DNA from: Microbacteriaceae bacterium
GTDB lineage: Bacteria > Actinomycetota > Actinomycetes > Actinomycetales > Microbacteriaceae
Direction of reading: 5' to 3'
DNA length: 64,000 nucleotides
NCBI GenBank assembly: GCA_044338315.1
Contig: JBIILU010000002.1
Span: forward strand, 15,987-79,986
The notes beneath the pieces were generated by a model. It was not told the DNA's origin. It did not search any database and was given only the letters and a program-made list of their open reading frames with translations. Position numbers and translations under genes: made by a program. This document shows, piece after piece, positions 22,897-47,122 of the stretch; positions within the stretch are counted from its first letter, which is position 1; every line of letters begins with the position of its first letter.

Positions 22897-23339
22897 TGTC
22901 GGCACCCGATCGCGCTCGCAAGATGGCGGAACGAATCAAAGAGATCGTTGCTCGCCGTCTAGAAAAAGGTATGCGTGACGACCGAATTGGTTTCGTCACC
23001 ATCACTGACGTGCGCATGACCGGTGACCTGCAACACGCGACCGTCTTCTTCACGGTGTACGGCTCTGACGAAGAGCGTCAGAATTCGTGGGATGCCCTCA
23101 AATCAGCGACGGGAATGTTGCGTTCGGAAGTCGGACGCAACATCACCGCCCGCTTGACCCCGTCGCTCGAGTTCGTGCTCGACGCACTGCCGGAAACATC
23201 CGCGCACCTTGAAGACTTGCTCATCAAGGCAAAAATGCACGACGACGAGGTCACCAAAGCCTCCGCCGGTGCGGAGTACGCCGGCGACGAAGACCCGTAT
23301 GTTCGCCCGCGTGAAGACGAGGATGACGACGAGGAATAG
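22896..23339 (+). CDS. rbfA: Ribosome-binding factor A
   Basis: 147 aa, RARKMAERIKEIVARRLEKG..FVTITDVRMTGDLQHATVFF. The start overlaps the infB stop (TAATG). Confidence 0.93.
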   Translation: MSAPDRARKMAERIKEIVARRLEKGMRDDRIGFVTITDVRMTGDLQHATVFFTVYGSDEERQNSWDALKSATGMLRSEVGRNITARLTPSLEFVLDALPETSAHLEDLLIKAKMHDDEVTKASAGAEYAGDEDPYVRPREDEDDDEE

Positions 23340-29404: not shown

Positions 29405-29610
29405 AGCGACCCAAACGAGGTGCCGCACTCACCGTTGCTGCAACGGTAAGCGGGCGATTCGGGTTCGATGATGCAACCACCGAGTTCGATCAAACCTTCC
29501 GCCTGAGCACTCGACATTTCGGCGCTCGGCAGTCCGTAGATGATCTCGACGGGTTCTGGCGTCCCGCATTCAGGGCACGCAATCGACGAGGGGTCGTCAA
29601 ACAGGTTCAT
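29401..29610 (-). CDS. Small zinc-ribbon protein
   Basis: 69 aa from ATG 29610 (GGAAGGA 5-6 nt upstream). CPEC ... CSNGEC is a four-Cys arrangement. The stop overlaps the SNF2 stop (CTAG). Confidence 0.55.
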   Translation of the reverse strand: MNLFDDPSSIACPECGTPEPVEIIYGLPSAEMSSAQAEGLIELGGCIIEPESPAYRCSNGECGTSFGSL

Positions 29611-29672
29611 AGGGTTCCTTCCGGCCAAGGGTGGATTTTTCTCAGGTTATGAGACACCACCGACACGGAACC

Positions 29673-30398
29673 CTAGAGGCGGGGGCGATCCAACCCGACA
29701 CCGACGAAAATGCGAGCGTGAACTCGTTCAACGCCGACGGCAAGTGCACAAAGCCCAATGATGAACGCCGCAATCGCCAGCACGTAGGCAACGACCCCAC
29801 CGACGCCCATCTCACCCGGATTGAGGAAGAAGTAGGGGAACCAGCCGTCTCCGGCGAGACCACGAACCAGCGAGCCAGCGACCCACAGAAGCGGGTAGAC
29901 GGCGGCAATCCACAGCACGCTCCAGCGAAGACGCGAACGGCCGGGCATCAACAACCACTCGATCGCGATGAAGATGGGCATCCACACGTGTTGGATGAGA
30001 TTCGGGAACTCGAACGAGGCGACATAACCGTCGTTCGACGAAAGGCCGGCGAGAAGCAGGTTGTAAACAACACCGACAACAATCGCGTACGACACGGTAC
30101 ACGCGCGAACGACGGTGTACCAGCGCGCATCGACATCGCGCATCAGCCCGAACAGTCCGCCCATCGTGAGTACAACAATGTTGATGATGCACGTCTGGAT
30201 AGTGAAGTACTGGAAGTAGTGGCTCGGGTCGAAAATGCCTTGAACAAGGCGGTCAGAAATGTTGACCGACAGCGCAACAACAACCGCGGCCGCGGCAGCA
30301 AGGTTGAGGAAACCAAAAGTTCGGCGAAGCACGACGGCCAACCGAATCGGTCGAGCGCCCGTGCGCGTAGTTGTTGCGGGTTCGAAGAGGGCGTTCAT
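29673..30398 (-). CDS. Integral membrane protein (possibly Pr6Pr/FAR-17a-AIG1-like family)
   Basis: 241 aa with ~6 hydrophobic helices. It is preferred over the antisense 304-aa ORF (29631..30545), which is Arg/Asn/His-rich with no structure. Confidence 0.68.
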   Translation of the reverse strand: MNALFEPATTTRTGARPIRLAVVLRRTFGFLNLAAAAAVVVALSVNISDRLVQGIFDPSHYFQYFTIQTCIINIVVLTMGGLFGLMRDVDARWYTVVRACTVSYAIVVGVVYNLLLAGLSSNDGYVASFEFPNLIQHVWMPIFIAIEWLLMPGRSRLRWSVLWIAAVYPLLWVAGSLVRGLAGDGWFPYFFLNPGEMGVGGVVAYVLAIAAFIIGLCALAVGVERVHARIFVGVGLDRPRL

Positions 30399-30471
30399 GT
30401 GTCGTCCTTGACATATCGGGCCGTCAACGCGACGGCGGCAAACCCCAGACTACTGGCGTGCTGGGCGTACG

Positions 30472-30948
30472 GTGGGATACGTGTACGACGTGTGTGTGGT
30501 TTATTTGGTGCGAAGCCGCCAAACGCTGTTCGGCACCCGTACTGAGATCTTGCTCGGCGAAAAACTGACCGGCCTCGGCACTGGAAAGTTCGTCGGCGCC
30601 GGCGGCAAACTCGAATCGGGGGAGAGCGCGGTGGATGCAGCGGTTCGAGAAGTCGCTGAAGAGCTCGGGGTGCTAGTTGCCCCCGCCGACCTCGAACCCA
30701 TCAGCGTCATCACCTACCCGTTCGTCGATCGCGACGAGTGGAGTCAACGCAGCTTCGGATTCGTTGCCCGACAGTGGACGGGCACACCTCGAGCCAGCGA
30801 CGAACTCGCTCCGCGGTGGTTCGACACTCGTCGCATTCCGTTCCACCGAATGTGGGCCGATGCTGAGTTGTGGTTGCCGCGGGCCCTCAACGGTGAATTC
30901 ATTGAGGAGACTTTTTCGTTCCGCGCCGACGGCACACTCGTCGGTTAA
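30472..30948 (+). CDS. NUDIX hydrolase (MutT-like)
   Basis: Perfect Nudix box GKLESGESAVDAAVREVAEELGV (G-x5-E-x7-REUxEExGU). 158 aa. Confidence 0.85.
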   Translation: MGYVYDVCVVYLVRSRQTLFGTRTEILLGEKLTGLGTGKFVGAGGKLESGESAVDAAVREVAEELGVLVAPADLEPISVITYPFVDRDEWSQRSFGFVARQWTGTPRASDELAPRWFDTRRIPFHRMWADAELWLPRALNGEFIEETFSFRADGTLVG

Positions 30949-31100
30949 CGAGCGAAGGGCCGAGCTTTCGCCCGACCCTTCGCTGCAGAACTGACTAGTT
31001 CTTGGCTCGTGCGCGTCGCACAGCGGCCACTGCACCGAGTGCCACTCCACCGGCGAGCAGCGCGCCAGCGCCGATGCCGATCGCGGTTGCGTCGACACCA
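30943..31100 (-). repeat. Direct repeat copy 1: sorting-signal codons plus 3' hairpin cassette
   Basis: About 158 bp aligning by eye with 32326..32483, with most positions identical. It covers the last ~35 codons of surface protein B, its stop and the downstream hairpin. Confidence 0.85.
30951..30984 (-). terminator. 15-bp hairpin with GAAA loop downstream of surface protein B
   Basis: Minus-strand RNA AGCGAAGGGUCGGGC-GAAA-GCUCGGCCCUUCGCU, 10 nt after the stop. No clear U-tract. It also lies 3 nt after the convergent NUDIX stop. Confidence 0.55.
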
Positions 31101-32185
31101 GTGTTACCAAGGTCGGTTGCTAACGAGTTCACGGGTTCACCGAGCGGGTCGAGGAACGTGACTCCCGATTCGGGGTCGTAGTAGGTGTTCATGAAGACGA
31201 GACGAGCGTCTGTTGGATCGTCGACATCGTCAAGCATGAGCATGAGGATCAGGTAGTTCCCTGCTTCAGGGGCATCCGCTGGATTGTCAGACGCGGGTTC
31301 GATGATGAAGGGGAAGTCGCCATCGAGAGATACTCCATTCGGAAAAGTGACCTCAAACAAAGGCTCAACTGGGCCAAGAGCCGGAATTGCCTGGAACCAC
31401 AATTCCCTGAACGAATTGTTAGGTATCGAAGGATCGTCAGGGAACATAAACGCTCCACCGCTGCTTACATCTAAGGGTACGAAGTCACCGAACAACGAAT
31501 CACTACCCGCAGCAAATCGTGCATCGCCTGCAAAACCGTTACCAAACGTTTCCTGGTTGGAAATTTCAAACGGCTCCAGCAGGACGTGGTTGGGGATCAG
31601 TTCGACGGCTGCCTGGATAGTGATGTCGTCAATGAATCCGTCGGCAGTGGGTGTGGTGTCCTCCACATAGCTAGTAGTGAACGTCGCGTCACAAACGACA
31701 CCAACGAGGTGCGGCATGATCGATTCAAACACGTAGTCATCTAGCCAAGCATCGCCAAGGAGCATACGGAATGAGCCCTCGAACGAGTAGGTCGTGGCAG
31801 CGCCAGAACCGCTAGTGGCCCAGCCGTCACCGGTTGTGTCGAATTTGAGCAAACCCATCTCATTACTGTCACCACTTGGCGTAAATGCGGCAAAATAAGC
31901 CGAGCCTTCAGGAACAAGATCCATGCCGCTAAACACATTTGTGACTTCCTCAGTTGCGTCTTCGAGATAAAAACCAGGTGACAAAACCAATGACACATCT
32001 GAAGGGCCTGTGTAGTCGACTGTGTAGGTTGAGGCATCCTCTGAAACTGTTGCCGCAATAGTGAACGGGGAGCTATCGCACGAGCCAGCGCCACCGGCCT
32101 CGGCGACGATGAGTTCACCACAACCAGCGATGAGCGCAACCGGAAGGGTGATCCCTGCGACGGTCAGGAGTTTCTTTGAAAACAT
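30995..32185 (-). CDS. Acidic surface protein with N-terminal lipobox and C-terminal LGNTG sorting signal
   Basis: MFSKKLLTVAGITLPVALIAGC (lipobox LIAGC). The 396-aa body is Asp/Thr/Gly-rich. The C-terminus has LGNTG, hydrophobic AIGIGAGALLAGGVALGAVAAV and RRARAKN. Confidence 0.75.
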   Translation of the reverse strand: MFSKKLLTVAGITLPVALIAGCGELIVAEAGGAGSCDSSPFTIAATVSEDASTYTVDYTGPSDVSLVLSPGFYLEDATEEVTNVFSGMDLVPEGSAYFAAFTPSGDSNEMGLLKFDTTGDGWATSGSGAATTYSFEGSFRMLLGDAWLDDYVFESIMPHLVGVVCDATFTTSYVEDTTPTADGFIDDITIQAAVELIPNHVLLEPFEISNQETFGNGFAGDARFAAGSDSLFGDFVPLDVSSGGAFMFPDDPSIPNNSFRELWFQAIPALGPVEPLFEVTFPNGVSLDGDFPFIIEPASDNPADAPEAGNYLILMLMLDDVDDPTDARLVFMNTYYDPESGVTFLDPLGEPVNSLATDLGNTGVDATAIGIGAGALLAGGVALGAVAAVRRARAKN

Positions 32186-32325
32186 GTTTACCTCTCGAAG
32201 TTTGATTCGTCGACGCGAATCAGTTTCTGCTACTCTATCGAATTCATGTGAGCTGACTCAAGGCAACGCGCAGCACTTAATCAGTTGGCGCAACACTTCC
32301 GTACCGCCCCAACGGCACGATGGTT

Positions 32326-32483
32326 GGTTAAACGAGGAAGGGCCGAGCTTTCGCCCGACCCTTCCTCGTTAGAACTGACTAGTTCTTGGCTCGTGCGCGT
32401 CGCACAGCGGCAACTGCACCTAGTGCAACTCCACCGGCGAGCAGTGCACCAGCACCGACGCCGATCGCGGATGCGTCAACACC
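32326..32483 (-). repeat. Direct repeat copy 2: sorting-signal codons plus 3' hairpin cassette
   Basis: Aligns with 30943..31100. It covers the last ~35 codons of surface protein C, its stop and the downstream hairpin. Confidence 0.85.
32332..32369 (-). terminator. 17-bp hairpin with GAAA loop downstream of surface protein C
   Basis: Minus-strand RNA ACGAGGAAGGGUCGGGC-GAAA-GCUCGGCCCUUCCUCGU, 9 nt after the stop. The base of the stem differs from copy 1 but stays complementary. Confidence 0.55.
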
Positions 32484-33215
32484 GGTCGAGGCCAGGTTGC
32501 CGAGGCTCCAACGAATGATGACGGCACCGGACGCGCCGTCTTGGTAGGTCGTCCCGCAGACACTGCCACCTGCACCGTACGTGGGTGTTGGGCATTCACC
32601 TGCGGTGGCATAGATTCTGCCGCTGGGAGCATAAAGTGGCTCGCCGTCAGTCACGGGGAAGAGTGGATTGTTCGCACCAGCCACGTTGACATCACTCAGC
32701 GGAAAGCCAGCGTAAGCCATGATGTTGTCGTCAAATCCGGAACCTAATCCGTCGGCTGAGTCCTCTCCGAGCTCCGAAGCTTCGCCGTCTAATCCGTCGA
32801 TCACCGTATCGACGATTGAGTTTGTCCAGAGGAGTTCCTCGTAGGTCCCTCCTTCACCAACGGTGACGGCTAGCGCGCCCGTGACGTCCTCATAGGAATA
32901 GTGTTCCATGTAGGCTCCGTAGCCGAAGAACTTCCTTAAGGAGGTTGGGTCTTCTGTCACGGTCTCTTTTTCTGACCCAGCGCCACCACCGATGAGCACT
33001 GCTTCAAATGCGGTCACGCCCGCAGGTGCATCGAACGAGTAATCACCGGCAGTTCCGTAAATGACCTGACAAATGCTGCCGTTGATGAGGCTGACGGTTG
33101 CGCCTGTGTGCGTTCCGCAGTCTGCGGCCGTTGCGGCCTGTGCTGCGGTTGCGCCAAGCAGCGAGCCTGCACCCATCAGGGCAACGGATCCGGCTGCAAG
33201 AATTTTGTTCGTCAT
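32379..33215 (-). CDS. Wall-anchored glycine-rich-domain surface protein (LASTG sorting signal)
   Basis: Signal peptide MTNKILAAGSVALMGAGSLLGATAAQA. Contains YSFDAPAGVTAFEAVLIGGGAGS..VTVGEGG..GAGGSVCG..GAVIIRW. The C-terminus has LASTG, a hydrophobic stretch and RRARAKN. The ATG overlaps the upstream stop (ATGA). Confidence 0.78.
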   Translation of the reverse strand: MTNKILAAGSVALMGAGSLLGATAAQAATAADCGTHTGATVSLINGSICQVIYGTAGDYSFDAPAGVTAFEAVLIGGGAGSEKETVTEDPTSLRKFFGYGAYMEHYSYEDVTGALAVTVGEGGTYEELLWTNSIVDTVIDGLDGEASELGEDSADGLGSGFDDNIMAYAGFPLSDVNVAGANNPLFPVTDGEPLYAPSGRIYATAGECPTPTYGAGGSVCGTTYQDGASGAVIIRWSLGNLASTGVDASAIGVGAGALLAGGVALGAVAAVRRARAKN

Positions 33216-34669
33216 GATTTGCCTTTCGAGGGGGTGATGTTGTTGGAAATAATTGTTCGGTCTACTTTACCAAGTTGATTGCGCGGAATCTCCGCCATTC
33301 GAACGAGCGCACCGAAGGCCAGGTCGGGTAGGAATTCCTTGACGCGGGCGGCCAAAATCGCCGGTTCGGGCGGGTGCTTGGTGACAAATGCGATTCCGAC
33401 CGATGTTGCGCCGGTGGCGTTGGTGAATTGGAAACTTGCCGCGTCCAGAAACAAGCCCGATTCCACAAGCCACTGGTCCAGGTCCAGCAGGTTGAATTTT
33501 GCCCCACCCGCATTCACCAGGTCGTCGCGGCGCCCCGCCAACCACAATCGGTTCTGGTCATCGATTCGCCCGTAATCTCCGGGATAGAACCAGCCGTCTC
33601 GAAATCCGGAGAATCCGGTGGTGACGGGGTTTTTCCAATAACCGCTGGGCATGCCGTCTTTCCGGAAGCGCAGAATTCCTTCGGTGTGGGCGGGCAGGGC
33701 CGCGCCGTTCTCATCCACAATTTCCGCGTCGATTTCGTCCACAATCTCGCCCACCATGGACGGGCTGAGCGTGTCGACCGTCCCGCGCGTGACGGTGCCG
33801 ACTTCGGTGGATCCGTAAAGGTAGGTGGGGGTCACACCGAAGAACATCTGGCATTCGGTCACCGTCTTTGACGGGATGAGGCTGCCGGCCACTTCGACGA
33901 TTTCGAGTGCCGTTTGTGGTTTGCCCGCGCGCTCCGCTTCGACCAGCACATCCGCCAGTCGTGCGGGTGAGGTCTTGATCGCCGCCACGCGATTCTGTGA
34001 AATGAGGCTGAAGTTCTCAGCCGCCCCCGCCACGGCGAAGTAGGTTTCACCGTTCATCATCGCCCACATAAATGTTTGGTATCCGGTCACCGTGTCGAGC
34101 CCCAGAAGAGACATGAACGGGACGCGGGGAATCCAGTTGCGGTGGGCGGAGTCGACTCGCGCCGTCAAGTAGTCGCTGGTGAACGGCACCCCTTTGGGTG
34201 TGCCGGTTGTGCCGCTGGAGAAAACGACCCGCACGACATCGTCGCCACCGAGCTCCACAATTCCGGCCCGAGGCGCCGCCCCAGCCAACGACCGCACAAA
34301 ATCGAGCGACAGTTCGACGACGGGAAGGTCGCCCGCACCGCGCGCCATTCCATCCGTCAGGACCAGGTCAATCGAGTCGCGGTATCCGCGCAGAATTGTT
34401 TCGGAAACGCGCATCGACACGGCACCCAGTTGCAGCAGCGCGAGCATTGCCACAGCCTCCATCTCTGGCCGAGCATTCACGCCCACAACGGAACCTTGCC
34501 GCACACCGGATTGCTCCAGCTTGCTCGCCATGCGCCTGACCGTGTCGGCAATGTCCCCAAACTTCAGCGTGCCACCGACGCTGACGACCGCCGGTGAGTC
34601 GGGCGTGCGGTCGGCGCACTCAAAGAATTGGACGACGGGGTTCACGTCTCTATCCAACCGCAGTTGCAC
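33212..34669 (-). CDS. Stand-alone adenylate-forming enzyme (AMP-dependent synthetase/ligase)
   Basis: 485 aa with core motifs FSSGTTGTPKG, YGSTEVG, YPGDYGRID, GRRDDLVNAGGAKF and PRNQLGKVDR. The GTG follows the upstream TGA directly. Confidence 0.85.
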   Translation of the reverse strand: MQLRLDRDVNPVVQFFECADRTPDSPAVVSVGGTLKFGDIADTVRRMASKLEQSGVRQGSVVGVNARPEMEAVAMLALLQLGAVSMRVSETILRGYRDSIDLVLTDGMARGAGDLPVVELSLDFVRSLAGAAPRAGIVELGGDDVVRVVFSSGTTGTPKGVPFTSDYLTARVDSAHRNWIPRVPFMSLLGLDTVTGYQTFMWAMMNGETYFAVAGAAENFSLISQNRVAAIKTSPARLADVLVEAERAGKPQTALEIVEVAGSLIPSKTVTECQMFFGVTPTYLYGSTEVGTVTRGTVDTLSPSMVGEIVDEIDAEIVDENGAALPAHTEGILRFRKDGMPSGYWKNPVTTGFSGFRDGWFYPGDYGRIDDQNRLWLAGRRDDLVNAGGAKFNLLDLDQWLVESGLFLDAASFQFTNATGATSVGIAFVTKHPPEPAILAARVKEFLPDLAFGALVRMAEIPRNQLGKVDRTIISNNITPSKGKS

Positions 34670-35497
34670 TCACGGCAGATCCAGCGAACCGTTTTTCACC
34701 CGTTTCGGGTAATCCGTCGGGTACGCCTTCTGCTTGGGGCAGGTCGCCAGCACTTCCTTCATCGCCACCTTCTCGTCGGGGGTGACCCACAACTTGTAAG
34801 CGGCCTTCACCGAAACCTGGCGTGACACATACCAACACCACACCTTCCGGCGCGGGGGCAACCACCAATCGGCGCTGTCGTCACCCTTCGAACTGTTCGT
34901 CGGGCCGTCCACTGCGACCAGGTTGAGCGGGTCGTTCGCTAACGCAACCCGCAAATCGTAACTGATTTTCCGAGCCCCCGTCTTCCAGGCATTCGACAGG
35001 GCGACGATGTGGTCGATCTGCACCGCGTTCGACGTGCCCCTGCCGCGTTTGAACGAGATGGTCTCGCCCGTGTACGGGTCGTCGATGACCCCCGTGTACA
35101 CCAGACACCAATCCGCACGGGTGATGTCCTCAAAGTCGCGGCGCAAAATATCGTTGCGAGTGTCGCACCCGTTGCCGTCCACGTCATACCAACTCGGCCC
35201 GAAACCGCCTTCGCGGTCATACCCCGACTGCGGCCCCAACGCCTTCACCGGCAACGTGTTCAACAGCGCAAGGGCTGTTCCCGCCGGTGCCGTGACGTCC
35301 TCGGTCGGGGTGGGCGTCGGCGTGGGCGTTTCGGTCGCGGCGGGGGAAGGCTGGGCGCTGGCCGAGTACGTCGGCCGCGCATCCGGCGTCTGCTCGTTGT
35401 CCGGCGCGAACGCGCTGTTAATCGACCCGATCACCCACAACACGAAGATAACTCCAAGCCCAATGGGCGTGAGGGTGAACTTGCGAGCCATGCTCAC
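34670..35497 (-). CDS. Membrane-anchored/secreted DUF1524-type His-Me (HNH-like) nuclease
   Basis: N-terminal TM (LTPIGLGVIFVLWVIGSI) and a Pro/Thr linker (TETPTPTPTPTED). Contains GYDREGGFGPSWYDVDGNGCDTRNDIL, IDHIVALSNAWKTGA and DPLNLVAVDGPTNSSKGD. The start may be ATG 35491. Confidence 0.8.
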   Translation of the reverse strand: MSMARKFTLTPIGLGVIFVLWVIGSINSAFAPDNEQTPDARPTYSASAQPSPAATETPTPTPTPTEDVTAPAGTALALLNTLPVKALGPQSGYDREGGFGPSWYDVDGNGCDTRNDILRRDFEDITRADWCLVYTGVIDDPYTGETISFKRGRGTSNAVQIDHIVALSNAWKTGARKISYDLRVALANDPLNLVAVDGPTNSSKGDDSADWWLPPRRKVWCWYVSRQVSVKAAYKLWVTPDEKVAMKEVLATCPKQKAYPTDYPKRVKNGSLDLP

Positions 35498-35525
35498 AGC
35501 CTATGAGCGGCCTGCGACGTAGACG

Positions 35526-36413
35526 TTATGACGCCATAAACAATTCAAACCGTTGGGCCAGCTTGTCTCGGTCGGGTTTGTTGGCCTTCGATGTCGGTGT
35601 CGTGATTTCAGTCAGGTGCATGTCTTTGAGTCCGTGTTGAAGCATCGGCCCGTCGATTTCCTCGAGCAATGCTGCATCGATATGAACCGTGTAATCGGGA
35701 TCGATGCCCAGAAGGTTCCGGTCGTACGCGGCATGGTGAATCTTGCAAAGCGACAGACCGTTGGGGACAGAGGCCGATCCGCCCTCGTCCGCGTCGGGGA
35801 TGATGTGTGCCGCATCAAGCAGATCCGCGTGGTTGAGGCGACAGATTGCGCACCGACGGTCGTATGCGCTCAAAACCCTTGCGCGAAAGAGGGGCTGGTG
35901 GACACGGCGGCGAACTTCAACAGTTGCGTATCGCCTTTCAACCTCGGACATCCCCACTTCGACCTGTGCCTTGATCGTTGCGTCCACGGCGATTTCGACG
36001 TGCCCGGCTTCGAAGTCCGCTTTGAGGAGGAAAGCCCCAACGTATGGCACATAAAGGTTCGAGATGGGGCGTTCAAAAAGAATTATGGGAGTCCGGGTCT
36101 CCATCGCAACCAACATTTTTCTATTCGAGCCGGCTCGTGGATCTCCCGCCTCAAACTTGTAGCGCAGGATCCCGTTCTCGTCGAAGTGGTCGTCATAGGG
36201 GCCTTCGGCCGCACTGGTCACCGTGAGTGTCGCGTCAAACAACTGTGGGTTGATAATTCCGCGTTGACCAACCAGCGCAATTCGCTGACCATCAATCTCG
36301 AAATTCATGAGTTGGTTGTAGGTGAGTGCCCCACCGAACTCCGTCGCCATCTCGCGAACCTTGGCGAAAATTTTTTCGCGGAGCAGGTCTTGCTCCATCT
36401 GCGTAAGTGCCAT
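35526..36413 (-). CDS. HNH_2-type endonuclease with SRA/PUA-like N-terminal domain (type IV restriction-like)
   Basis: C-terminal CAICRLNHADLLDAAHIIP..NGLSLCKIHHAAYD (HNH). N-terminal GIINPQ..GPYDDHFDENGILRYKFEAGDPRAGSNRKMLVAMETRTPIILFE resembles SRA/YDG-type base-flipping readers; this domain assignment is inference. Confidence 0.78.
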   Translation of the reverse strand: MALTQMEQDLLREKIFAKVREMATEFGGALTYNQLMNFEIDGQRIALVGQRGIINPQLFDATLTVTSAAEGPYDDHFDENGILRYKFEAGDPRAGSNRKMLVAMETRTPIILFERPISNLYVPYVGAFLLKADFEAGHVEIAVDATIKAQVEVGMSEVERRYATVEVRRRVHQPLFRARVLSAYDRRCAICRLNHADLLDAAHIIPDADEGGSASVPNGLSLCKIHHAAYDRNLLGIDPDYTVHIDAALLEEIDGPMLQHGLKDMHLTEITTPTSKANKPDRDKLAQRFELFMAS

Positions 36414-36955: not shown

Positions 36956-37201
36956 TTAAAGGAGGTTGTTCGCGGTGAGGCGCTCTTCCAACTGCGGGTT
37001 GGACGGCTCTGAGAGGAACGAACCGTCGGGGAAGACGATCACGGGGATCTTGGCCAGGCCGCTGATTTCGCGAGCTTTCGCCTGGTCCTCCTCAGATGCG
37101 TCGGTGTCGTGCCATTCATAGGCGACCCCGTGGCGGTCGAGAAGCATTTTTGCTCGTGTGCAGTCGCCGCACCAGTCGGCTCCGTAAACATCAATAGTCA
37201 T
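36956..37201 (-). CDS. Glutaredoxin/NrdH-like small redoxin
   Basis: 81 aa, MTIDVYGADWCGDCTRAKMLLDRHGV (CxxC = CGDC). The thioredoxin-fold pattern includes IPVIVFPDG. Confidence 0.75.
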   Translation of the reverse strand: MTIDVYGADWCGDCTRAKMLLDRHGVAYEWHDTDASEEDQAKAREISGLAKIPVIVFPDGSFLSEPSNPQLEERLTANNLL

Positions 37202-37232
37202 GTTTTCAGTCTATTTCAGTTGAGGGAAATCC

Positions 37233-38672
37233 GTGTCTGTCCTCGCCCGTAAAATTGGCTCAACAACGGGAGGCGGCGGCGACATGGTTTCGGTAACGGG
37301 CACGTTCAAGAGCGTCAGCGATGGCGTCGTCGGGTTCGTTCCCGATCGCAACGCGCCGTCGTCGGTTCCGCCAACCGTCATGTTGTCTGGTTTCCGTCAG
37401 TTCCCCGGGGTCGCACCCGAACTGGTTGCGCCACTGGGGGAAACAGTCACCGTCGATTACGACACCGCCGCAAAGCACATCATGTTCCCCGTCGATCGGT
37501 GGCTCGATGCTGACCTGCTTCATGCGTATCCGGAGGGCACGGTCACGCTGGCTCTGGTTCAGACCGTCACACGACAGAGCGCCACCGTGTTCATCCACCC
37601 GACGATGCCCATCGTCATGAACCGCGAAGATTTCTCGTCGAACGCGAAGGACGTCGTCGACCGCCTGCTGACCGACGGCGATGTCATCCCGGTGCGCATC
37701 GCGCACAACGCCAAAGGCGCTGTCAGGCTGCGCGCGCACGATATCAACGACGACGAAACGGTTCTGGCCGCCCCCGAGTTGTTCCCCGGCCGAGGGCCGT
37801 GGTTGGCCGCGATGTCGCTGACGACAGTCGACGAGATTCGCGAGCGCTACCTGGCCGAGAAACGCCAGCGCGACGAATTCAACGACGCGATGGAGAAACT
37901 CGCCGCGCAGCTGGACACCGACATTCACGAACTGCGCGAAGTGCTGGCCGGAATCGGCACGGGCACGGGCGAAATCCCGGTCGCTACGACCACCGCCCCC
38001 AAGAGCGAAAAAGAGAAGGTTGCCGACGCCGTTCGCGACATGGCGACCTCGCACATCACCAAGGTGCTGTTGGCCTACAAGAGCCAGATCACGACGCTGA
38101 TTACCCAGAACAAGGCGCTCGTCGCCGACGTCGAAGAGAAGACCGAGAACGACCGCACGCTACGCGCCGAACTGTCAACCGCCCGCCAGCGCATCCAGGA
38201 ACTCGACAAACAACTGGGCAGTGCACGCGGGTCCGATTCGATGCCCGACCGCCGACACCACTTCACGACCGCCACGGAATGGATCATCGAAGAGGTTCGC
38301 CGGTTCTGGCTCGACAACTACACCCCCGCCGACCGCGCGTCCTTCCCGCTCAACGTCGACCAGTGGCGCGTGCTGCCATCGTTTGCCACGACGTTCGAGG
38401 CCCTGACCGACGACGGCATGGACAAGGCAATCAAGACCGCGACCCACATCGTCACCGGACGCAACGCTGTCGAACACATTTTCGAAGACCACCCGCTTCG
38501 CGAAGGCGACGAAACGAGCAAACCCGAAGTCGTCCGCGACGACGGCGCCGCGTCGAGGCGCGCGTACATCGAATCGCACACCGCCCAGTCGCGCCGTCTG
38601 CACTATTGGCGCCTGCGCGACGGGTCGATCGAACTGTCACGGGTCGGTTTGCACGACGACTTCACGCCGTAA
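37233..38672 (+). CDS. Hypothetical 479-aa protein (OB-like N-terminus, coiled coil, RelE/ParE-like C-terminus?)
   Basis: Long ORF with coding-like composition. Two candidate starts each have an SD: GTG 37233 (GAGGGA) and ATG 37284 (GGGAGG). I recognise no confident family. See findings. Confidence 0.62.
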   Translation: MSVLARKIGSTTGGGGDMVSVTGTFKSVSDGVVGFVPDRNAPSSVPPTVMLSGFRQFPGVAPELVAPLGETVTVDYDTAAKHIMFPVDRWLDADLLHAYPEGTVTLALVQTVTRQSATVFIHPTMPIVMNREDFSSNAKDVVDRLLTDGDVIPVRIAHNAKGAVRLRAHDINDDETVLAAPELFPGRGPWLAAMSLTTVDEIRERYLAEKRQRDEFNDAMEKLAAQLDTDIHELREVLAGIGTGTGEIPVATTTAPKSEKEKVADAVRDMATSHITKVLLAYKSQITTLITQNKALVADVEEKTENDRTLRAELSTARQRIQELDKQLGSARGSDSMPDRRHHFTTATEWIIEEVRRFWLDNYTPADRASFPLNVDQWRVLPSFATTFEALTDDGMDKAIKTATHIVTGRNAVEHIFEDHPLREGDETSKPEVVRDDGAASRRAYIESHTAQSRRLHYWRLRDGSIELSRVGLHDDFTP

Positions 38673-38752
38673 CCGTTTTCCGCACAAAAACTGCGCAAAC
38701 ACGCACAAAACCCTTTGGGGTCAAACGATTTCGCCAGAGTAATGTGAACAAC

Positions 38753-40237
38753 ATGGTGCAAACGACGGGGCCAGCGCCCTCCTTTGGATTCAATGACGAC
38801 GACCCGACGGCTTTCGGGCTCGATGCGAACCGCGGATACGATGGGCCGACCCGCACCGAACACGACTCACTCGGCACGATGGAAGTTCCGGCCGACGCGT
38901 ACTGGGGAATCCACACCGCTCGCGCGCTGCACAACTTTCCCATCACCCGCCGCGCCCTCTCGAACTATCCCGACCTCGTGCGCGCGCTGGTGCGCGTCAA
39001 GCACGCGGCGGCCCTCGCCAACAAAGAAATCGGTGTTCTCGATGCCGCGAAGGCCGACCTCATCGTCGAGGTCTGCGAAGAAATTTATGGCGGAATGTTG
39101 CACGACCAATTCGTGCTGGGGGTCCTTCAGGGTGGTGCCGGAACATCGACCAACATGTCGACCAACGAAATCATCGCCAACCGCTGCCTCGAAAAGATGG
39201 GTCACGTCAAGGGCGACTACCAACACATGCACCCCATCGACGACGTCAACCGGTCACAGTCGACCAACGACACCTACCCCACATCGATCAAACTGGCGAT
39301 GGTGTACGGACTGCAAAAACTGCTGGTCGAACACGACCTGCTGACCAAAGCCTTCGACGCCAAGGGCACCGAGTTCGCACACATCATGAAGATCGGCCGC
39401 ACCCAGATGCAAGACGCCGTGCCCATGACCCTCGGTCAGGAATTCCACGGCTGGGGAACGACCATGCGCGAAGACCAAGACCGACTGTCGGAAATCATCC
39501 CGTGGCTGTGCGAAACGAACCTGGGCGCAACCGCCATCGGCACAGGTATCACCGCCGACCCCGGCTACACCAAAGCCGCCGCGAAGCACCTTGCGGCCAT
39601 CACCGGCCTTCCTGTCGTAACAGCACCCGACCTCATCGAGGCCACCAGCGACACGGGAATCTTCATGACCGTGTCCGGAACGCTGAAGCGCGCAGCGGTC
39701 AAACTGTCAAAAATCTGTAACGACCTGCGCCTGCTGTCGTCCGGCCCGCAGGCGGGCTTCGGCGAGATTCGTCTGCCCGCCAAGCAGGCCGGGTCCAGCA
39801 TCATGCCCGGCAAGGTCAACCCCGTCATCCCCGAGGTCGTCAACCAGGTCGCCTACGCCGTCATCGGTGCCGACGCGACGGTGACCGCCGCTTCCGAAGC
39901 TGGCCAGTTGCAGTTGAACGCGTTCGAGCCCGTCATCGCCTCCAGCATTCTGCAGTCACTCGCGTGGATGACGAACGCCTGCCGCACCCTGCGCATCAAC
40001 TGTGTTGACGGCATCGAAGCGAACGAAGATCGCCTCGCCGCCATGGTCGCCTCGAGCGTTGGTGTCATCACCGCATTGATTCCGGTTATCGGATACGAAG
40101 AGGCCGCCAAGCTAGCGAAGAAGGCCCTCGAAACCGGCGCACCGATTCGCGATTTGGTTGTCGACGCAGGCTTGATGTCGGCAGACGAGGTCGATGCTGC
40201 TCTCGCCCCCGAGAAACTCAGCAACTCAAAAATCTAA
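38753..40237 (+). CDS. aspA: Aspartate ammonia-lyase (class II fumarase/aspartase family)
   Basis: ATG 38753, RTEHDSLGTMEVPADAYWGIHTARALHNFPIT, signature GSSIMPGKVNP. The 318-codon Arg/Pro-rich upstream extension of ORF 37799.. is rejected. Confidence 0.9.
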   Translation: MVQTTGPAPSFGFNDDDPTAFGLDANRGYDGPTRTEHDSLGTMEVPADAYWGIHTARALHNFPITRRALSNYPDLVRALVRVKHAAALANKEIGVLDAAKADLIVEVCEEIYGGMLHDQFVLGVLQGGAGTSTNMSTNEIIANRCLEKMGHVKGDYQHMHPIDDVNRSQSTNDTYPTSIKLAMVYGLQKLLVEHDLLTKAFDAKGTEFAHIMKIGRTQMQDAVPMTLGQEFHGWGTTMREDQDRLSEIIPWLCETNLGATAIGTGITADPGYTKAAAKHLAAITGLPVVTAPDLIEATSDTGIFMTVSGTLKRAAVKLSKICNDLRLLSSGPQAGFGEIRLPAKQAGSSIMPGKVNPVIPEVVNQVAYAVIGADATVTAASEAGQLQLNAFEPVIASSILQSLAWMTNACRTLRINCVDGIEANEDRLAAMVASSVGVITALIPVIGYEEAAKLAKKALETGAPIRDLVVDAGLMSADEVDAALAPEKLSNSKI

Positions 40238-41016
40238 GGGCTGCGCTCTCGAAGTCGGCGAGAACGCTCGTTCACGTCAGCCGAATCGCCAAAACAGGCA
40301 TCGAGTGCATCAGCCACGGTTGAAGCACCGTGGGTTCGAGCAGCGTCGTCGTCAGCGGCGAGTTCTGTGCTAATTCTCATCGCTTGAGCAAACTTTCGGC
40401 TCGCGGGGATTCCTGCGGCCGCCACCATAGCCAAGTGAGCTGCCGCGAGCAGTGCGTGGTGTCGATTGGAAATGTGTGATTGCTCGTGCGACAGTGCTGC
40501 TCGTTGAAGTCGTTCGGGGACGGAGTTGACGAAACCCGTGCTGACAATGATGTCGTTAGTGTGGGGGATTGCGGTCACGACGATCGACGGTTCGTCGACG
40601 ATATTGACGGGTCGACCAGCGACGATACCTGATGCACTTGTTTCCAGGAATTTGGAGAGCGCTCGTTGGCCTTCTCGCTGTTCTCCTTGAATTGCTGAAA
40701 CCCCGGCACCGAGCCGGAAAATGATGATTCCGAGAAAAGCGACAGCGGCCCACGCGAGCAGTGTTTGTGTGACGCTACTGAGCCATTCATCGGAGCGTGT
40801 AGTCGAGCCGTATCCCGTTAGTCCATCTGCAATTAGTAGTCCAGAGCCGACAGTCAGCGTGAACAATGCGGTGACGAGTGCATCGAGCCAGATAAAAATG
40901 TGGAACCTCGGATATCTTGAGATGAGGTGAGGTGAGTTGAGAATCCTCGGTGCTGTAACAGTGATTGCAAAGTAGAGCACGAGTAAGGCGATCCCGCCCC
41001 ATTCGATGTCTAGCAC
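40234..41016 (-). CDS. M56-family (BlaR1-like) membrane metalloprotease without sensor domain
   Basis: 260 aa with several TMs and an HEQSH (HExxH) motif. Located immediately downstream of the BlaI-family repressor. Confidence 0.8.
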   Translation of the reverse strand: MLDIEWGGIALLVLYFAITVTAPRILNSPHLISRYPRFHIFIWLDALVTALFTLTVGSGLLIADGLTGYGSTTRSDEWLSSVTQTLLAWAAVAFLGIIIFRLGAGVSAIQGEQREGQRALSKFLETSASGIVAGRPVNIVDEPSIVVTAIPHTNDIIVSTGFVNSVPERLQRAALSHEQSHISNRHHALLAAAHLAMVAAAGIPASRKFAQAMRISTELAADDDAARTHGASTVADALDACFGDSADVNERSRRLRERSP

Positions 41017-41023
41017 GGTCTAG

Positions 41024-41377
41024 TTAGCTGTCAAGTGCCGCGCGGAGAAGTGCACGGTCCTCGTCAGTGAGGTTCCCCGCGAAGTTCAGGAGAAGCAATT
41101 CGCGGTTGCTAGCGTTATGTAACGAGCGGGACATCGCTCCTGCAAGGGTCTCTTCTCGCGGATACGCAGCCTCATACCGGTACCCTCTACCGTCGTTCTT
41201 TTCCCGAATGACCATTCCCTTCTCGCGCATGCGTTCAAGGACCGTAACAACTGTCGTAGCCACCGGAATGGGTTCGTTGAAACAACCTCTAATCTCGGTG
41301 GACGTCAACCCAGCGGGGTTGTCCCAAATGATGTCCATAAGTTCGGCTTCGAGTTCGCCGCGCTTTCGTTGGGCCAC
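41024..41377 (-). CDS. BlaI/MecI/CopY-family transcriptional repressor
   Basis: 117 aa. Winged-helix MAQRKRGELEAELMDIIWDNPAGLTSTEIRGCF..VATTVVTVLERMREKGMV. Confidence 0.88.
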   Translation of the reverse strand: MAQRKRGELEAELMDIIWDNPAGLTSTEIRGCFNEPIPVATTVVTVLERMREKGMVIREKNDGRGYRYEAAYPREETLAGAMSRSLHNASNRELLLLNFAGNLTDEDRALLRAALDS

Positions 41378-43890: not shown

Positions 43891-46149
43891 ATGGAAGGTC
43901 CTGAAATCAAGTTCGCCGAGGCCGTTATCGATAACGGCAAGTTCGGTAAGCGAATCGTCCGTTTTGAAACGGGCCGTTTGGCGCAGCAGGCACAGGGTGC
44001 CGTTGCCGCCTACCTCGATGAGGAAACAATGATCCTGAGCGCAACGAGCGCCAGCAAGCAGCCGCGCGAAGGGTTTGACTTCTTCCCGCTCACGGTGGAC
44101 GTCGAAGAGCGTTCATACGCCGCGGGAAAAATCCCGGGCTCGTTCTTCCGTCGCGAAGGTCGCCCGTCGACCGAAGCGATCCTCGTCTGCCGTCTGATCG
44201 ACCGCCCGTTGCGTCCGTCGTTCGTCGACGGCCTGCGTAACGAGGTCCAGATCGTCATCACCGTTTTGTCGATTGCACCGGGTGAGTACTACGACGCCCT
44301 TGCAATCAACGCCGCGTCGGCATCGACCCAGATTTCGGGCCTCCCGTTCTCGGGACCGATCGCCGGTGTCCGCATGGTTCTCATCGACGGAAACTGGGTC
44401 GCATTCCCCAACGCCACGCAGGTGTCCGAAGCCGTCTTCGACCTCGTCGTCGCCGGCCGTTTGGTCAAGGACAAGAACGGCGTCGAAGACGTCGCCATCA
44501 TGATGGTGGAAGCGGAAGCGACCGAAGGGTCGTGGAACCTCATCCAGGCCGGTGGCATCAAGCCCGACGAGGCAATCGTCGAGCAGGGCCTCGAAGCGTC
44601 GAAGAAGTACATCACCGAACTCGTTCGCGCCCAGGAGAAGCTCGCCGCACAGTCGGCGAAGGAAATCCAGCCGTACCCCGTGTTCTCGGACTACAGCGAC
44701 GCAACGCTTGCCGCCGTCAAGGAACTCGCGGAAAAGGAACTGACCGCGGTTTACCAGATCGCCGACAAGGTCGAACGACAGAACGCCGACGACGCACTGA
44801 AGGACCGCGTCAAGGTTGCCGTCGCCGCCAAGGTCGAGGCTGGCGACTTGCCCGCCGAATCCAACGGTCAGGTTTCCGCAGCGTACAAGTCAGTCACCAA
44901 GAAGATTGTGCGAAACCGCATCCTCACCGACGGCATTCGCATCGACGGCCGCAACAAGACGCAGATCCGTTCGCTCGACGCCGAAGTTTCGGTCATCCCG
45001 CGCGTCCACGGCTCGGCGATCTTCCAGCGCGGAGAAACCCAGATCCTGGGAATCACCACACTGAACATGCTCAAGATGGAACAGCAGATCGATTCGCTGA
45101 ACCCCATCACGTCCAAGCGCTACATGCACCACTACAACTTCCCGCCATATTCGACCGGTGAAACGGGTCGCGTCGGTTCGCCGAAGCGTCGCGAGATCGG
45201 GCACGGCTTCCTCGCCGAGCGCGCACTCGTCCCCGTTCTGCCCACGCGTGAAGAGTTCCCCTACGCGATTCGTCAGGTCTCGGAAGCTCTGAGCTCCAAC
45301 GGTTCGACGTCGATGGGTTCGGTGTGTGCGTCAACGCTCGCGCTGCTTAACGCCGGTGTGCCGCTGCGCGCACCAGTTGCCGGAATCGCGATGGGTCTCG
45401 TCTCTGACGAGGTCGACGGCGAAACCCGTTACGCAACGCTGACCGACATCCTCGGAGCCGAAGACGCCCTCGGCGACATGGACTTCAAGGTCGCCGGAAC
45501 GAAGGACTTCATCACCGCGATTCAGCTCGACACCAAGCTCGACGGAATCCCGGCATCGGTTCTGGCCGGTGCGTTGACTCAGGCGCGCGATGCTCGCCTC
45601 GAGATCCTCGACGTCCTCAACGAAGCAATCGACGGACCCGACGAGATGGCCCCGACCGCGCCCCGCGTGATCTCGGTGCAGATCCCCGTCGACAAGATCG
45701 GTGAACTCATCGGACCGAAGGGCAAGACGATCAACTCCATCCAGGACGAGACCGGTGCCCAGATTTCGATCGAGGAAGACGGAACCGTTTACATCGGTTC
45801 GAACGACGGCCCCTCGGCCGAAGCCGCTCGTGATCGCGTCAACCAGATCGCCAACCCGATCAACCCCGAGGTTGGTGAGCAGTTCCTCGGAACCGTCGTC
45901 AAGCTCGCGACGTTCGGTGCGTTCGTCTCCCTGCTCCCGGGCAAGGACGGCCTGCTGCACATCTCCGAGCTGCGCAAGCTCGCCGGTGGCAAGCGCGTCG
46001 AAAACGCCGAGGACGTCCTCTCGGTCGGCCAGAAGGTGCTCGTCGAAATCGCCAAAATCGATGACCGTGGCAAGCTCTCGCTTGTTCCAGTCGTCGAAGG
46101 CGACGAGGGCGCTGCAGCCGACGATGACGGCGAAGGCGAAGACGCTTAA
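43891..46149 (+). CDS. pnp: Polyribonucleotide nucleotidyltransferase (PNPase)
   Basis: 752 aa with two RNase PH-like halves plus C-terminal KH ([20 protein letters not shown]) and S1 ([27 protein letters not shown]) domains. Confidence 0.97.
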
Positions 46150-46336: not shown

Positions 46337-47122
46337 GTGAACACTCTGTCATCACTGTTGGACAACAACCAGTTCAACCTTGTCTACAACATGTTGTCGC
46401 TGGGTATCGCGAGCATGCTCTTCACGACGGTTTTCCTCTTCGTCGCGCGTGAGCGTGTAGCACCCCGCTACCGCATGGCCGTTATGGTGTCGGGAACGGT
46501 TACCGCAATTGCTGCGTACCACTACTTCCGCATGTTCGATTCCTTTAACCACGCATTCGCTGGCCTCGAAGGAAACAACGCTGACGCCTACAACGTTGGA
46601 TACCGTTACGTCGACTGGCTCCTCACGGTGCCGCTGCTTCTCGTCGAAATCGTTGCCGTTCTCGGCCTGGCCCGTGCGATTCAAGCATCGTTGCTGAACC
46701 GCCTCGTTCCTGCCGCTGCTGCGATGATCCTCCTGGGTTACCCCGGAGACGCAAAGCTCGACATCTTCGGCCTTGCACCCAGCATTTGGGGCGCACTGTC
46801 GACGATTCCTTTCCTCTACATCCTGTACGTGCTCTTCGTTGAGATGGGCAAGAGCCTCTCGCGTCAGTCCGCACCGGTCCAGAAGAAGATCAAGCAGCTC
46901 CGCCTGTTGCTCCTCGCAACATGGGGCGTTTACCCCATCACGTTCATCCTCGCGATGAACAGCACCGGGTTCAACGCTGACGAGGTTGTTGCTCGCGAAA
47001 TCGGTTACTCCATTGCCGACATCCTCGCGAAGTGCCTCTTCGGTCTCGTCATCTTCTCGATCGCCCGCATCAAGTCGGCCGAGGATGACAAGGAATTCGC
47101 CAAGGCTGAATTCCGCGACTAA
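46337..47122 (+). CDS. Actinorhodopsin / xanthorhodopsin-like light-driven proton pump
   Basis: 261 aa, 7 TM. RYVDWLLTVPLLLVE matches proteorhodopsin RYIDWLLTVPLLICE (D-T-E motif, Leu at the spectral-tuning position). Schiff-base Lys in SIADILAKCLFG. Confidence 0.92.
   Translation: MNTLSSLLDNNQFNLVYNMLSLGIASMLFTTVFLFVARERVAPRYRMAVMVSGTVTAIAAYHYFRMFDSFNHAFAGLEGNNADAYNVGYRYVDWLLTVPLLLVEIVAVLGLARAIQASLLNRLVPAAAAMILLGYPGDAKLDIFGLAPSIWGALSTIPFLYILYVLFVEMGKSLSRQSAPVQKKIKQLRLLLLATWGVYPITFILAMNSTGFNADEVVAREIGYSIADILAKCLFGLVIFSIARIKSAEDDKEFAKAEFRD

Follow-up and report, generated by a model that had tools for sequence, protein, structure and literature searches.

RelE-type mRNA interferases are textbook two-gene toxin–antitoxin (TA) systems, and Cami1, the CARF-RelE effector of type III CRISPR (PDB 8phb), senses cyclic oligoadenylate by binding it through a CARF domain. 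The gene described here, by its favoured start at 37284–38672 on the + strand, lies in a 64,000-nucleotide stretch of DNA from a Microbacteriaceae bacterium (GenBank assembly GCA_044338315.1, contig JBIILU010000002.1, positions 15,987 to 79,986; this whole stretch is called the window) and encodes a protein predicted to join two S1/OB domains, a long coiled coil and a C-terminal domain of the RelE/ParE fold. RelE-fold domains within larger, antitoxin-less proteins are already known, HEC-07 (Hma-embedded candidate 07) and Cami1 being examples. In the sections of the preprint drawn on here, HEC-07 unites three domains in one polypeptide, the first AdoMetDC-like, the second thioredoxin-like without CxxC and the C-terminal one a RelE-family RNase domain that resembles HP0892 and has a conserved His; of nine candidates, seven lowered plaquing in E. 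coli, HEC-07 among them (bioRxiv 10.1101/2024.01.29.577857). The original prediction for the window gene, made from the letters of the DNA, held that such a fusion would be unusual, and this needs correcting, since HEC-07, with a RelE-like C-terminus and, as far as those sections go, no antitoxin, is a precedent of related architecture (bioRxiv 10.1101/2024.01.29.577857). The window gene is an accessory, rapidly diverging single-gene cassette, and we put at about even the chances that it is an accessory, antitoxin-less RNase gene, probably for phage defence.

The protein had been divided in the original prediction into an OB/S1-like N-terminus, a coiled-coil middle and a C-terminus resembling RelE/ParE toxins, and all three segments are present in the models: the S1/OB pair, helices 182–226 and 242–314, and a C-terminal domain spanning about residues 355–462. 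Residue numbers refer to the 462-aa protein, whose parts lie in the window as follows.

37284–37487, + strand: S1/OB domain 1, residues 1–68; AlphaFold2 strands 2–12, 15–20, 32–35, 54–60 and 65–67, and Foldseek matches to the tandem S1 domains of bS1
37506–37748, + strand: S1/OB domain 2, residues 75–155; AlphaFold2, profile matches to bS1 and the PNPase S1 domain, and Foldseek
37740–37805, + strand: acidic stretch and P-W-L motif, residues 153–174, connecting the S1 domains to the helices; recognised by conservation
37827–37961, + strand: long helix 1, residues 182–226; AlphaFold2, with residues 210–221 touching the partner chain in the dimer model
38007–38225, + strand: long helix 2, residues 242–314, predicted parallel homodimeric coiled coil; AlphaFold2 and dimer model
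38241–38342, + strand: three-helix subdomain, residues 320–353, before the nuclease fold, with near-invariant W342; AlphaFold2
38346–38669, + strand: RelE/ParE-fold domain, about residues 355–462, with conserved H403, R426, R438, H440 and H457

The full-length AlphaFold2 model was built on 145 family sequences and has a mean predicted local distance difference test score (pLDDT) of 91; its predicted template modelling score (pTM) of 0.53 makes the relative placement of the domains uncertain. A Foldseek search with this model returned the tandem S1 domains of ribosomal protein bS1 as the top match (E 3.5e-6, 169 columns), almost all of the top 50 rows being S1- or related OB-domain proteins, and the family sequence profile, run against the PDB, picked out both bS1 and the S1 domain of PNPase (E 5.6e-4 to 7.5e-4). 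As modelled, the N-terminus consists of five-stranded OB barrels superposable on S1 domains, in keeping with the pattern first read from the sequence. The Pfam S1 model PF00575 finds no match in the window protein at E ≤ 0.1; the PNPase encoded in the same window matches it at 3.5e-13. In the connecting segment, D153, D156, D157, P172, W173 and L174 are invariant or almost so among 27 sequences, and W173 is invariant among all 145.

Beyond the connector, the model has two long helices joined by a linker of low confidence. The homodimer prediction gave an ipSAE of 0.47 against 0.00 for the best control, a score that may reflect likeness to a parallel dimeric coiled coil rather than binding, because coiled coils resemble many solved structures. 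It passes the mark set for a dimer, as do 20 of 30 proteins whose solved structures are pairs and 1 of 23 whose solved structures are single chains. At least 63% of contacts recur between runs, with a partner pLDDT of at least 74. Predicted contacts are in register, with heptad spacing over residues 251–315 and an extension into 323–348, and i-to-i contacts fall at residues 272, 276, 279, 283, 286, 293, 297, 300, 304 and 307. The coiled-coil middle thus appears, by prediction, as a parallel dimeric coiled coil with in-register heptad contacts between two chains.

The C-terminal domain has the order beta-alpha-alpha-beta-beta-beta, reaches the C-terminus and is modelled separately with a pLDDT of 96. 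The predicted fold is compact and superposable on solved toxins, so the proposed resemblance to RelE/ParE proteins is upheld at the level of modelled structure, though sequence models are silent on it. The three helices of residues 320–353 fall outside the region aligned with RelE toxins (residues 40–146 of the C-terminal model). The columns of the 145-sequence alignment average 18% identity; R426 and R438 never vary there, and conservation is at least 90% for H403, L405, R406, R418, H440, W442, E450, L451, H457 and D458. By pattern, and with the YoeB numbering (E46, R65, H83), R438 presumably corresponds to YoeB R65 and H457 to YoeB H83, a matching that is not the result of a tool. In a MAFFT alignment the D-H-P-L motif of the family coincides with the same four residues in E. 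coli YafQ, pairing H403 with YafQ H50, and the C-terminal H457 falls under YafQ H87. According to the part of the YafQ literature cited here, H50, H63, D67 and H87 of that toxin participate in acid–base catalysis (PMC4652777). A PADLOC match to PDC-M15B over the RelE-like part (E 0.013 and 0.026) was dropped, as it was found in only 1 of 42 family members. In the source assembly (1.26 Mb, 91.6% complete), the canonical YoeB and YafQ Pfam families have no match.

The gene lies between two housekeeping neighbours, in a slot that is empty in some relatives.

36956–37201, − strand: mycoredoxin/glutaredoxin-like gene with a CGDC active site, divergent from the gene; Pfam Glutaredoxin E 4.9e-13, TIGR02200 E 3e-20
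38753–40237, + strand: aspartate ammonia-lyase (aspA), 80 bp past the gene's stop; NF008909 E 7e-210
37221–38664, no strand assigned: segment of 1,444 bp absent from empty-site relatives; blastn against G319 and G317

The divergent neighbour is glutaredoxin-like, as had been said, and the claim that no antitoxin-sized gene adjoins also stands: neither the 82-bp gap upstream nor the 80-bp gap downstream holds an open reading frame (ORF) of that size, so the adjacent cognate antitoxin gene of a type II TA system is absent from both sides. Across 69 loci no partner gene is conserved, the largest neighbour clusters covering 9 of the 69 and coming from closely related, Promicromonospora-type genomes; this clustering used ORFs filtered by G+C content at third codon positions with a 90-aa minimum, so very small partner genes in other loci could be missed. 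A survey of homologues and their surroundings returned an Actinomycetota family with heterogeneous neighbours: in 39 diverse loci the flanking genes, counted to the second on either side, differ widely, and 12 of the 39 have a defence, TA or transposase gene within these positions, the types including GmrSD_C, PIN, HipA, SLFN-type helicase, AAA_21/AAA_15 ATPase, AEP-TOTE, DUF222 and IS481.

Within the genus, the gene always lies between mycoredoxin and aspA. Eight syntenic species loci are listed, including the closest, at 91% identity; in the seven more distant ones the gene is 45–54% identical to the window's, aspA 84–88%, mycoredoxin 76–81% and the upstream HNH gene 88%. Divergence within the protein is uneven: in a comparison with locus L011, identity is 78% over the C-terminal third, 37% over the S1 pair and 30% over the coil. 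The ratio of nonsynonymous to synonymous substitution rates (dN/dS) against the closest relative (L010, 91% identical) is 0.14 for the gene and lower for its neighbours (aspA 0.05, mycoredoxin 0.09, HNH gene 0.01), which argues that the gene is functional and less constrained than its flanks. Three species (G302, G310 and G324) carry a long form of 661–677 aa in the same slot, and two (G319 and G317) have an empty site in which mycoredoxin adjoins aspA, their aspA being 94% identical to the window's. By blastn, 29 bp replace window positions 37221–38664 in G319, with the flank aligned to 37220, and 64 bp replace 37187–38665 in G317, with the flank aligned to 37186; the right flank resumes at 38665/38666. 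This presence/absence polymorphism argues against an essential function. The mycoredoxin was considered as a dedicated antitoxin and ruled out, since it is retained where the gene is absent. It was likewise rejected as a detached thioredoxin-like domain of the long forms, having an intact CGDC site and being present at the empty sites.

At the two empty sites (L105 6905–6975 and L106 2265–2335), TTTGC followed by CGCCGTAA aligns with the gene's last codons and stop (window 38640–38680), with a 10-bp gap. The aligned stretch could be a 3′ remnant, in which case the empty sites would have arisen by deletion. Only a short stretch matches, however, in a four-way alignment that is weak. No repeat pair brackets the gene as flanking direct repeats or a target-site duplication would, the same weak four-way alignment covering the junctions, and window 15000–50000 contains no tRNA genes as island markers. 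The empty-site genomes also conserve the 80-bp spacer before aspA, so a promoter belonging to aspA itself probably lies there. ATG 38753 is the sole in-frame aspA start ahead of the conserved region, and from this apparent start aspA would have an N-terminal extension of about 32 aa before the model-covered part.

The protein had also been called an orphan. That is true only in that no curated family covers it (the models of Pfam, NCBIfam and PADLOC give weak coiled-coil-type matches only); it is a member of a large uncurated Actinomycetota family, and current TA and defence annotation pipelines, which draw no match from Pfam, NCBIfam or PADLOC, miss that family. An exhaustive HMMER scan of cluster representatives found 869 at E ≤ 1e-3, of which 449 reach E ≤ 1e-10 and 67 reach E ≤ 1e-30. 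Genome scanning confirmed 202 loci, and the 79 kept are all from Actinomycetota (Micrococcales, Propionibacteriales, Actinomyces and one Microthrixaceae metagenome-assembled genome), the closest lying in metagenome-assembled genomes of freshwater Microbacteriaceae. At the level of the class, 8 of 301 sampled genomes match, one of them through the coiled coil only; within the genus the figure is 14 of 30 other genomes, and 7 of 9 among those at least 90% complete. Relatives also occur on 10 large actinobacterial plasmids, labelled 'hypothetical protein' in eight records and unannotated in two. Two plasmid relatives, at L092 5491–6561 (Streptomyces, 356 aa) and L091 5158–6534 (Glaciihabitans, 458 aa), match only the C-terminal 40% of the query, and the coil-plus-nuclease module may therefore be joined to other N-termini.

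Architectures were assigned with our own segment hidden Markov models (HMMs) on 200 collected family proteins, a sample biased to close relatives of the query.

125 of 200 proteins: long form, which carries one or more additional domains of about 140 aa at the N-terminus
64 of 200 proteins: short form as in the window (63 with S1-S1-coil-C-terminus and 1 without a detected coil)
11 of 200 proteins: pieces

The extra domain of the long forms is what ties this family to HEC-07. In 13 of 14 long forms more distant than those of the same slot it matches the PADLOC HEC-07 model PDLC04161, in its middle domain only, at model positions of about 140–300 of 553 and with E values down to 3e-25, and by its position the matched region should be the thioredoxin-like second domain of HEC-07. 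Eight of the 200 proteins have two copies of the HEC-07-like domain (P0135, P0195, P0184, P0167, P0176, P0174, P0175 and P0191). Our HMM of the family's N-terminal domain finds it in the two same-slot long forms that were scanned (G302 and G324; loci L104 and L102) at E 1e-19 and finds none in the window protein, which begins directly with S1 domain 1. The PADLOC HEC-07 model itself gives no match to L104 and L102 at E ≤ 0.01. A Pfam scan of 16 long forms at E ≤ 0.01 left 15 without a match and gave P0058 two weak coiled-coil-type matches, and an ESM Atlas search with the N-terminal domain of one long form returned no usable match. The HEC-07 model matches 25 of 301 Actinomycetes genomes, and five among the matches listed span most of it, to model position 544–550. 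One genome, G219, carries both a near-full-length HEC-07 homologue and a long form (C28:60212–61738 and C127:223–1989), so HEC-07 and the window-gene family are separate, co-existing families. As their C-termini have no detectable profile similarity, the link is one shared domain of the long forms and a parallel design, not membership.

Taken together, we picture the gene product as a homodimeric RNA endonuclease that would act without an antitoxin. The two N-terminal S1 domains of each chain may bind RNA, either mRNA or the ribosome; the parallel coiled coil of about 70 residues would pair two chains and serve as a stalk; and the RelE/YafQ/YoeB-type domain at the end of the stalk would cleave RNA through His/Arg acid–base chemistry. 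Its activity might be restrained in cis, with the three-helix segment 320–353 or the S1 domains, for example, taking the place of a separate antitoxin. The window copy, a short allele, would have lost the HEC-07-like N-terminal domain of full-length members, and the likeliest role is defence against phage or mobile elements by shutting down translation (abortive infection). RNase activity, ribosome dependence, the defence role, its trigger and autoinhibition are all things that we infer. A bolder version, whose chances we put clearly below even, is that these proteins form a hitherto undescribed single-gene immune family specific to Actinomycetota, a dimeric, stalked RelE-type RNase that its S1 domains would aim at translating ribosomes or phage RNA and that autoinhibition in cis would free from any need of an antitoxin, and that in streamlined freshwater Microbacteriaceae the slot between mycoredoxin and aspA is a one-gene defence hot spot cycling among long, short and empty states.

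Several observations weigh against the defence RNase. The catalytic mapping comes from sequence, by a MAFFT alignment and pattern matching, and has no statistical support; hhalign against the single E. coli YafQ and YoeB sequences was not significant (probability below 1%). RelE/ParE-type Pfam models match 0 of 42 C-terminal domains at E ≤ 10, a profile search of the PDB with the C-terminal domain returned no solved chain at E ≤ 10, and hhalign to the C-termini of actinobacterial HEC-07 homologues gave a probability of 0.3%. The window's RelE-like domain is acidic, with a net charge of −5 and a pI of 5.6 (family median net charge −0.5), set against pI values of 9.5 for YafQ and 8.0 for YoeB, and so looks ill suited to binding rRNA unaided. 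The window protein has no HEC-07 match at E ≤ 0.1 and no HEC-07-like domain, and no significant PADLOC match (best E 0.0018, to coiled-coil models). No phage record in the phage collection searched has a relative. The count of 12 in 39 loci with defence-type neighbours was made without a matched control, and ordinary metabolic genes are the majority of neighbours. Purifying selection in streamlined genomes of 1.2–1.6 Mb also fits a cellular function.

That cellular function might be that of a ribosome-associated mRNA endonuclease. Docked through its S1 domains, whether on mRNA or on the 30S subunit, it would use the RelE-like domain to cut mRNA on stalled ribosomes, in stress or quality control rather than immunity. 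The chromosomal, syntenic position amid housekeeping genes, retention in 7 of 9 same-genus genomes at least 90% complete, the purifying selection, S1 domains closest to those of ribosomal bS1 and the lack of a phage-borne relative would all suit such a role. We nevertheless think it unlikely, because the alleles at G319 and G317 are cleanly empty, only 8 of 301 genomes of the class match, the gene diverges 3–4 times faster than its flanks, copies are borne on plasmids and the long forms share a domain with HEC-07. The fold and the plasmid-borne relatives would suit a selfish, single-chain TA (addiction) module of no benefit to the host, with helices 320–353 or the coiled coil as internal antitoxin: a RelE/ParE fold stands at the C-terminus, extra helices come right before it and outside the toxin-aligned region, and, in the part of a survey of the fold cited here, fused mono-gene TA modules of the RelE/ParE superfamily are described (bioRxiv 10.1101/2025.01.28.635273). 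This too strikes us as improbable, as Pfam finds no antitoxin-type DNA-binding domain and relatives seem to have survived clean deletion of the gene. The acidic domain and the lack of sequence similarity to any active toxin family point, if anything, to a RelE/ParE fold that is not a nuclease here, being instead a binding module or a ParE-like inhibitor within an RNA-binding dimer of structural or regulatory function; by the same part of that survey, the fold has ParE-type members that are not RNases (bioRxiv 10.1101/2025.01.28.635273). This is quite improbable in our judgement, as a His, an Arg and a second His, all near-invariant, occupy the sequence positions of YafQ/YoeB catalytic residues.

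The extent of the gene itself bears on its N-terminus.

37284–38672, + strand: favoured coding sequence, 462 aa plus stop; supported by the start of the homologue alignment, the GGAGG and dN/dS
37269–37273, + strand: Shine-Dalgarno-like GGAGG, 10 nt before ATG 37284, read from the sequence
37233–37283, + strand: possible 17-codon N-terminal extension from GTG 37233, probably an untranslated leader; common to 0 of 26 aligned homologues

Read from GTG 37233, the frame stays open for 479 codons, until the stop at 38670–38672. That it is a true gene and no chance frame is borne out by the 869 matching cluster representatives and the dN/dS of 0.14. Homologues align only from residue 18 of the GTG frame, the best relatives being 460–472 aa long, and most full-length matches cover 96–97% of the query. 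Because homologues start at residue 18 and a GGAGG precedes ATG 37284, we take the gene to be 37284–38672, with translation probably starting at that ATG. GTG 37233, which has its own GAGGGA 5 nt upstream, is a less likely candidate start. In several homologues the predicted N-terminal extensions read K-G-G or similar right before the aligned Met, and these look like a translated ribosome-binding site rather than real protein. A promoter and terminator scan found no promoter-like site and no convincing terminator. The gene's DNA is present in at least 24 lake-water metagenome runs, none of which is listed as an RNA run.

Upstream of the gene, window 27296–36413 has the appearance of a small defence or variable island, and the gene lies 0.8–1.8 kb from the phosphorothioated-DNA-restriction-like HNH gene and the GmrSD_C gene of this region.

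27296–29404: SNF2 helicase, which PADLOC matches strongly to DrmD, DpdE and ZorD
29631–30545, 30995–32185 and 32379–33215: three ORFs without a Pfam or PADLOC match
33212–34669: AMP-binding enzyme
34670–35497: GmrSD_C nuclease
35526–36413: HNH_2/phosphorothioated-DNA-restriction-like endonuclease

By tblastn, the HNH, GmrSD_C and AMP-binding genes were not found in stretches of 8–9 kb around the empty sites of G319 and G317. On a larger scale, infB-rbfA and pnp usually form one conserved translation-related cluster. In the window they lie apart (20275–23339 and 43891–46149), with about 20 kb of unrelated genes in between. Further along, window 40234–41377 (− strand) encodes a BlaR/M56-like peptidase with a BlaI-family repressor, and beyond this pair come a PCuAC copper chaperone and a DyP peroxidase (to 43224). 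Window 46337–47122 holds a bacteriorhodopsin-family gene (Pfam E 5.7e-40), in keeping with a freshwater actinobacterium that uses light and has a very small genome.

A RelE fold fused to S1 domains and a dimerising stalk, and lacking an antitoxin, raises the questions of how it is kept silent and how it is aimed. Annotation pipelines overlook the family even in much-studied Microbacterium and Curtobacterium and on Streptomyces plasmids. Long, short and empty states at one locus in abundant freshwater bacteria with genomes of 1.2–1.6 Mb amount to a natural experiment on the cost and benefit of carriage. If the defence role is true, HEC-07-type RNase defence would extend to Actinomycetota, and the protein would offer a tractable sensor-stalk-effector architecture for structural work.

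No description of an S1-S1-coiled-coil-RelE design turned up in the literature searched, and each of the known systems shares part of it. With the YafQ, YoeB and RelE type II toxins the family shares His at the positions of YafQ H50 and H87 in the MAFFT alignment. It differs from them in that the domain makes up one quarter, at the C-terminus, of a protein of 462 aa, has an insertion of about 12 residues after D-H-P-L, is acidic rather than basic and is matched by no Pfam model, and in that its gene has no adjacent or conserved antitoxin gene. The tandem S1/OB domains are shared with bS1, PNPase, Tex and eIF2-alpha; unlike bS1 and other S1 proteins, the window protein has only two repeats, fuses them to a coiled coil and a nuclease fold, and escapes the Pfam S1 model. 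The toxins surveyed by Gerdes resemble it in having a RelE/ParE (BECR) fold inside a larger protein and, in the part of the survey cited here, are discussed as possible defence toxins; the survey began from 13 Pfam families, none of which detects the window-family domain, and its main text, to the extent covered here, makes no mention of an S1 domain, OB-fold, coiled coil, thioredoxin or Actinobacteria/Actinomycetes (bioRxiv 10.1101/2025.01.28.635273). Where Cami1 has its sensor, the window protein has S1 domains and a coiled coil, and its gene has no CRISPR context. The closest parallel is HEC-07 (PADLOC PDLC04158–04161), likewise a single polypeptide that ends, by the sections of its description cited above, in a RelE-fold domain with a conserved C-terminal His and for which those sections describe no antitoxin gene, and both families are found in Actinomycetes. 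The AdoMetDC-like and thioredoxin-like domains of HEC-07 are missing from the window protein, HEC-07 is not described in those sections with S1 domains or a coiled coil, and the C-terminal domains of the two families have no detectable sequence similarity.

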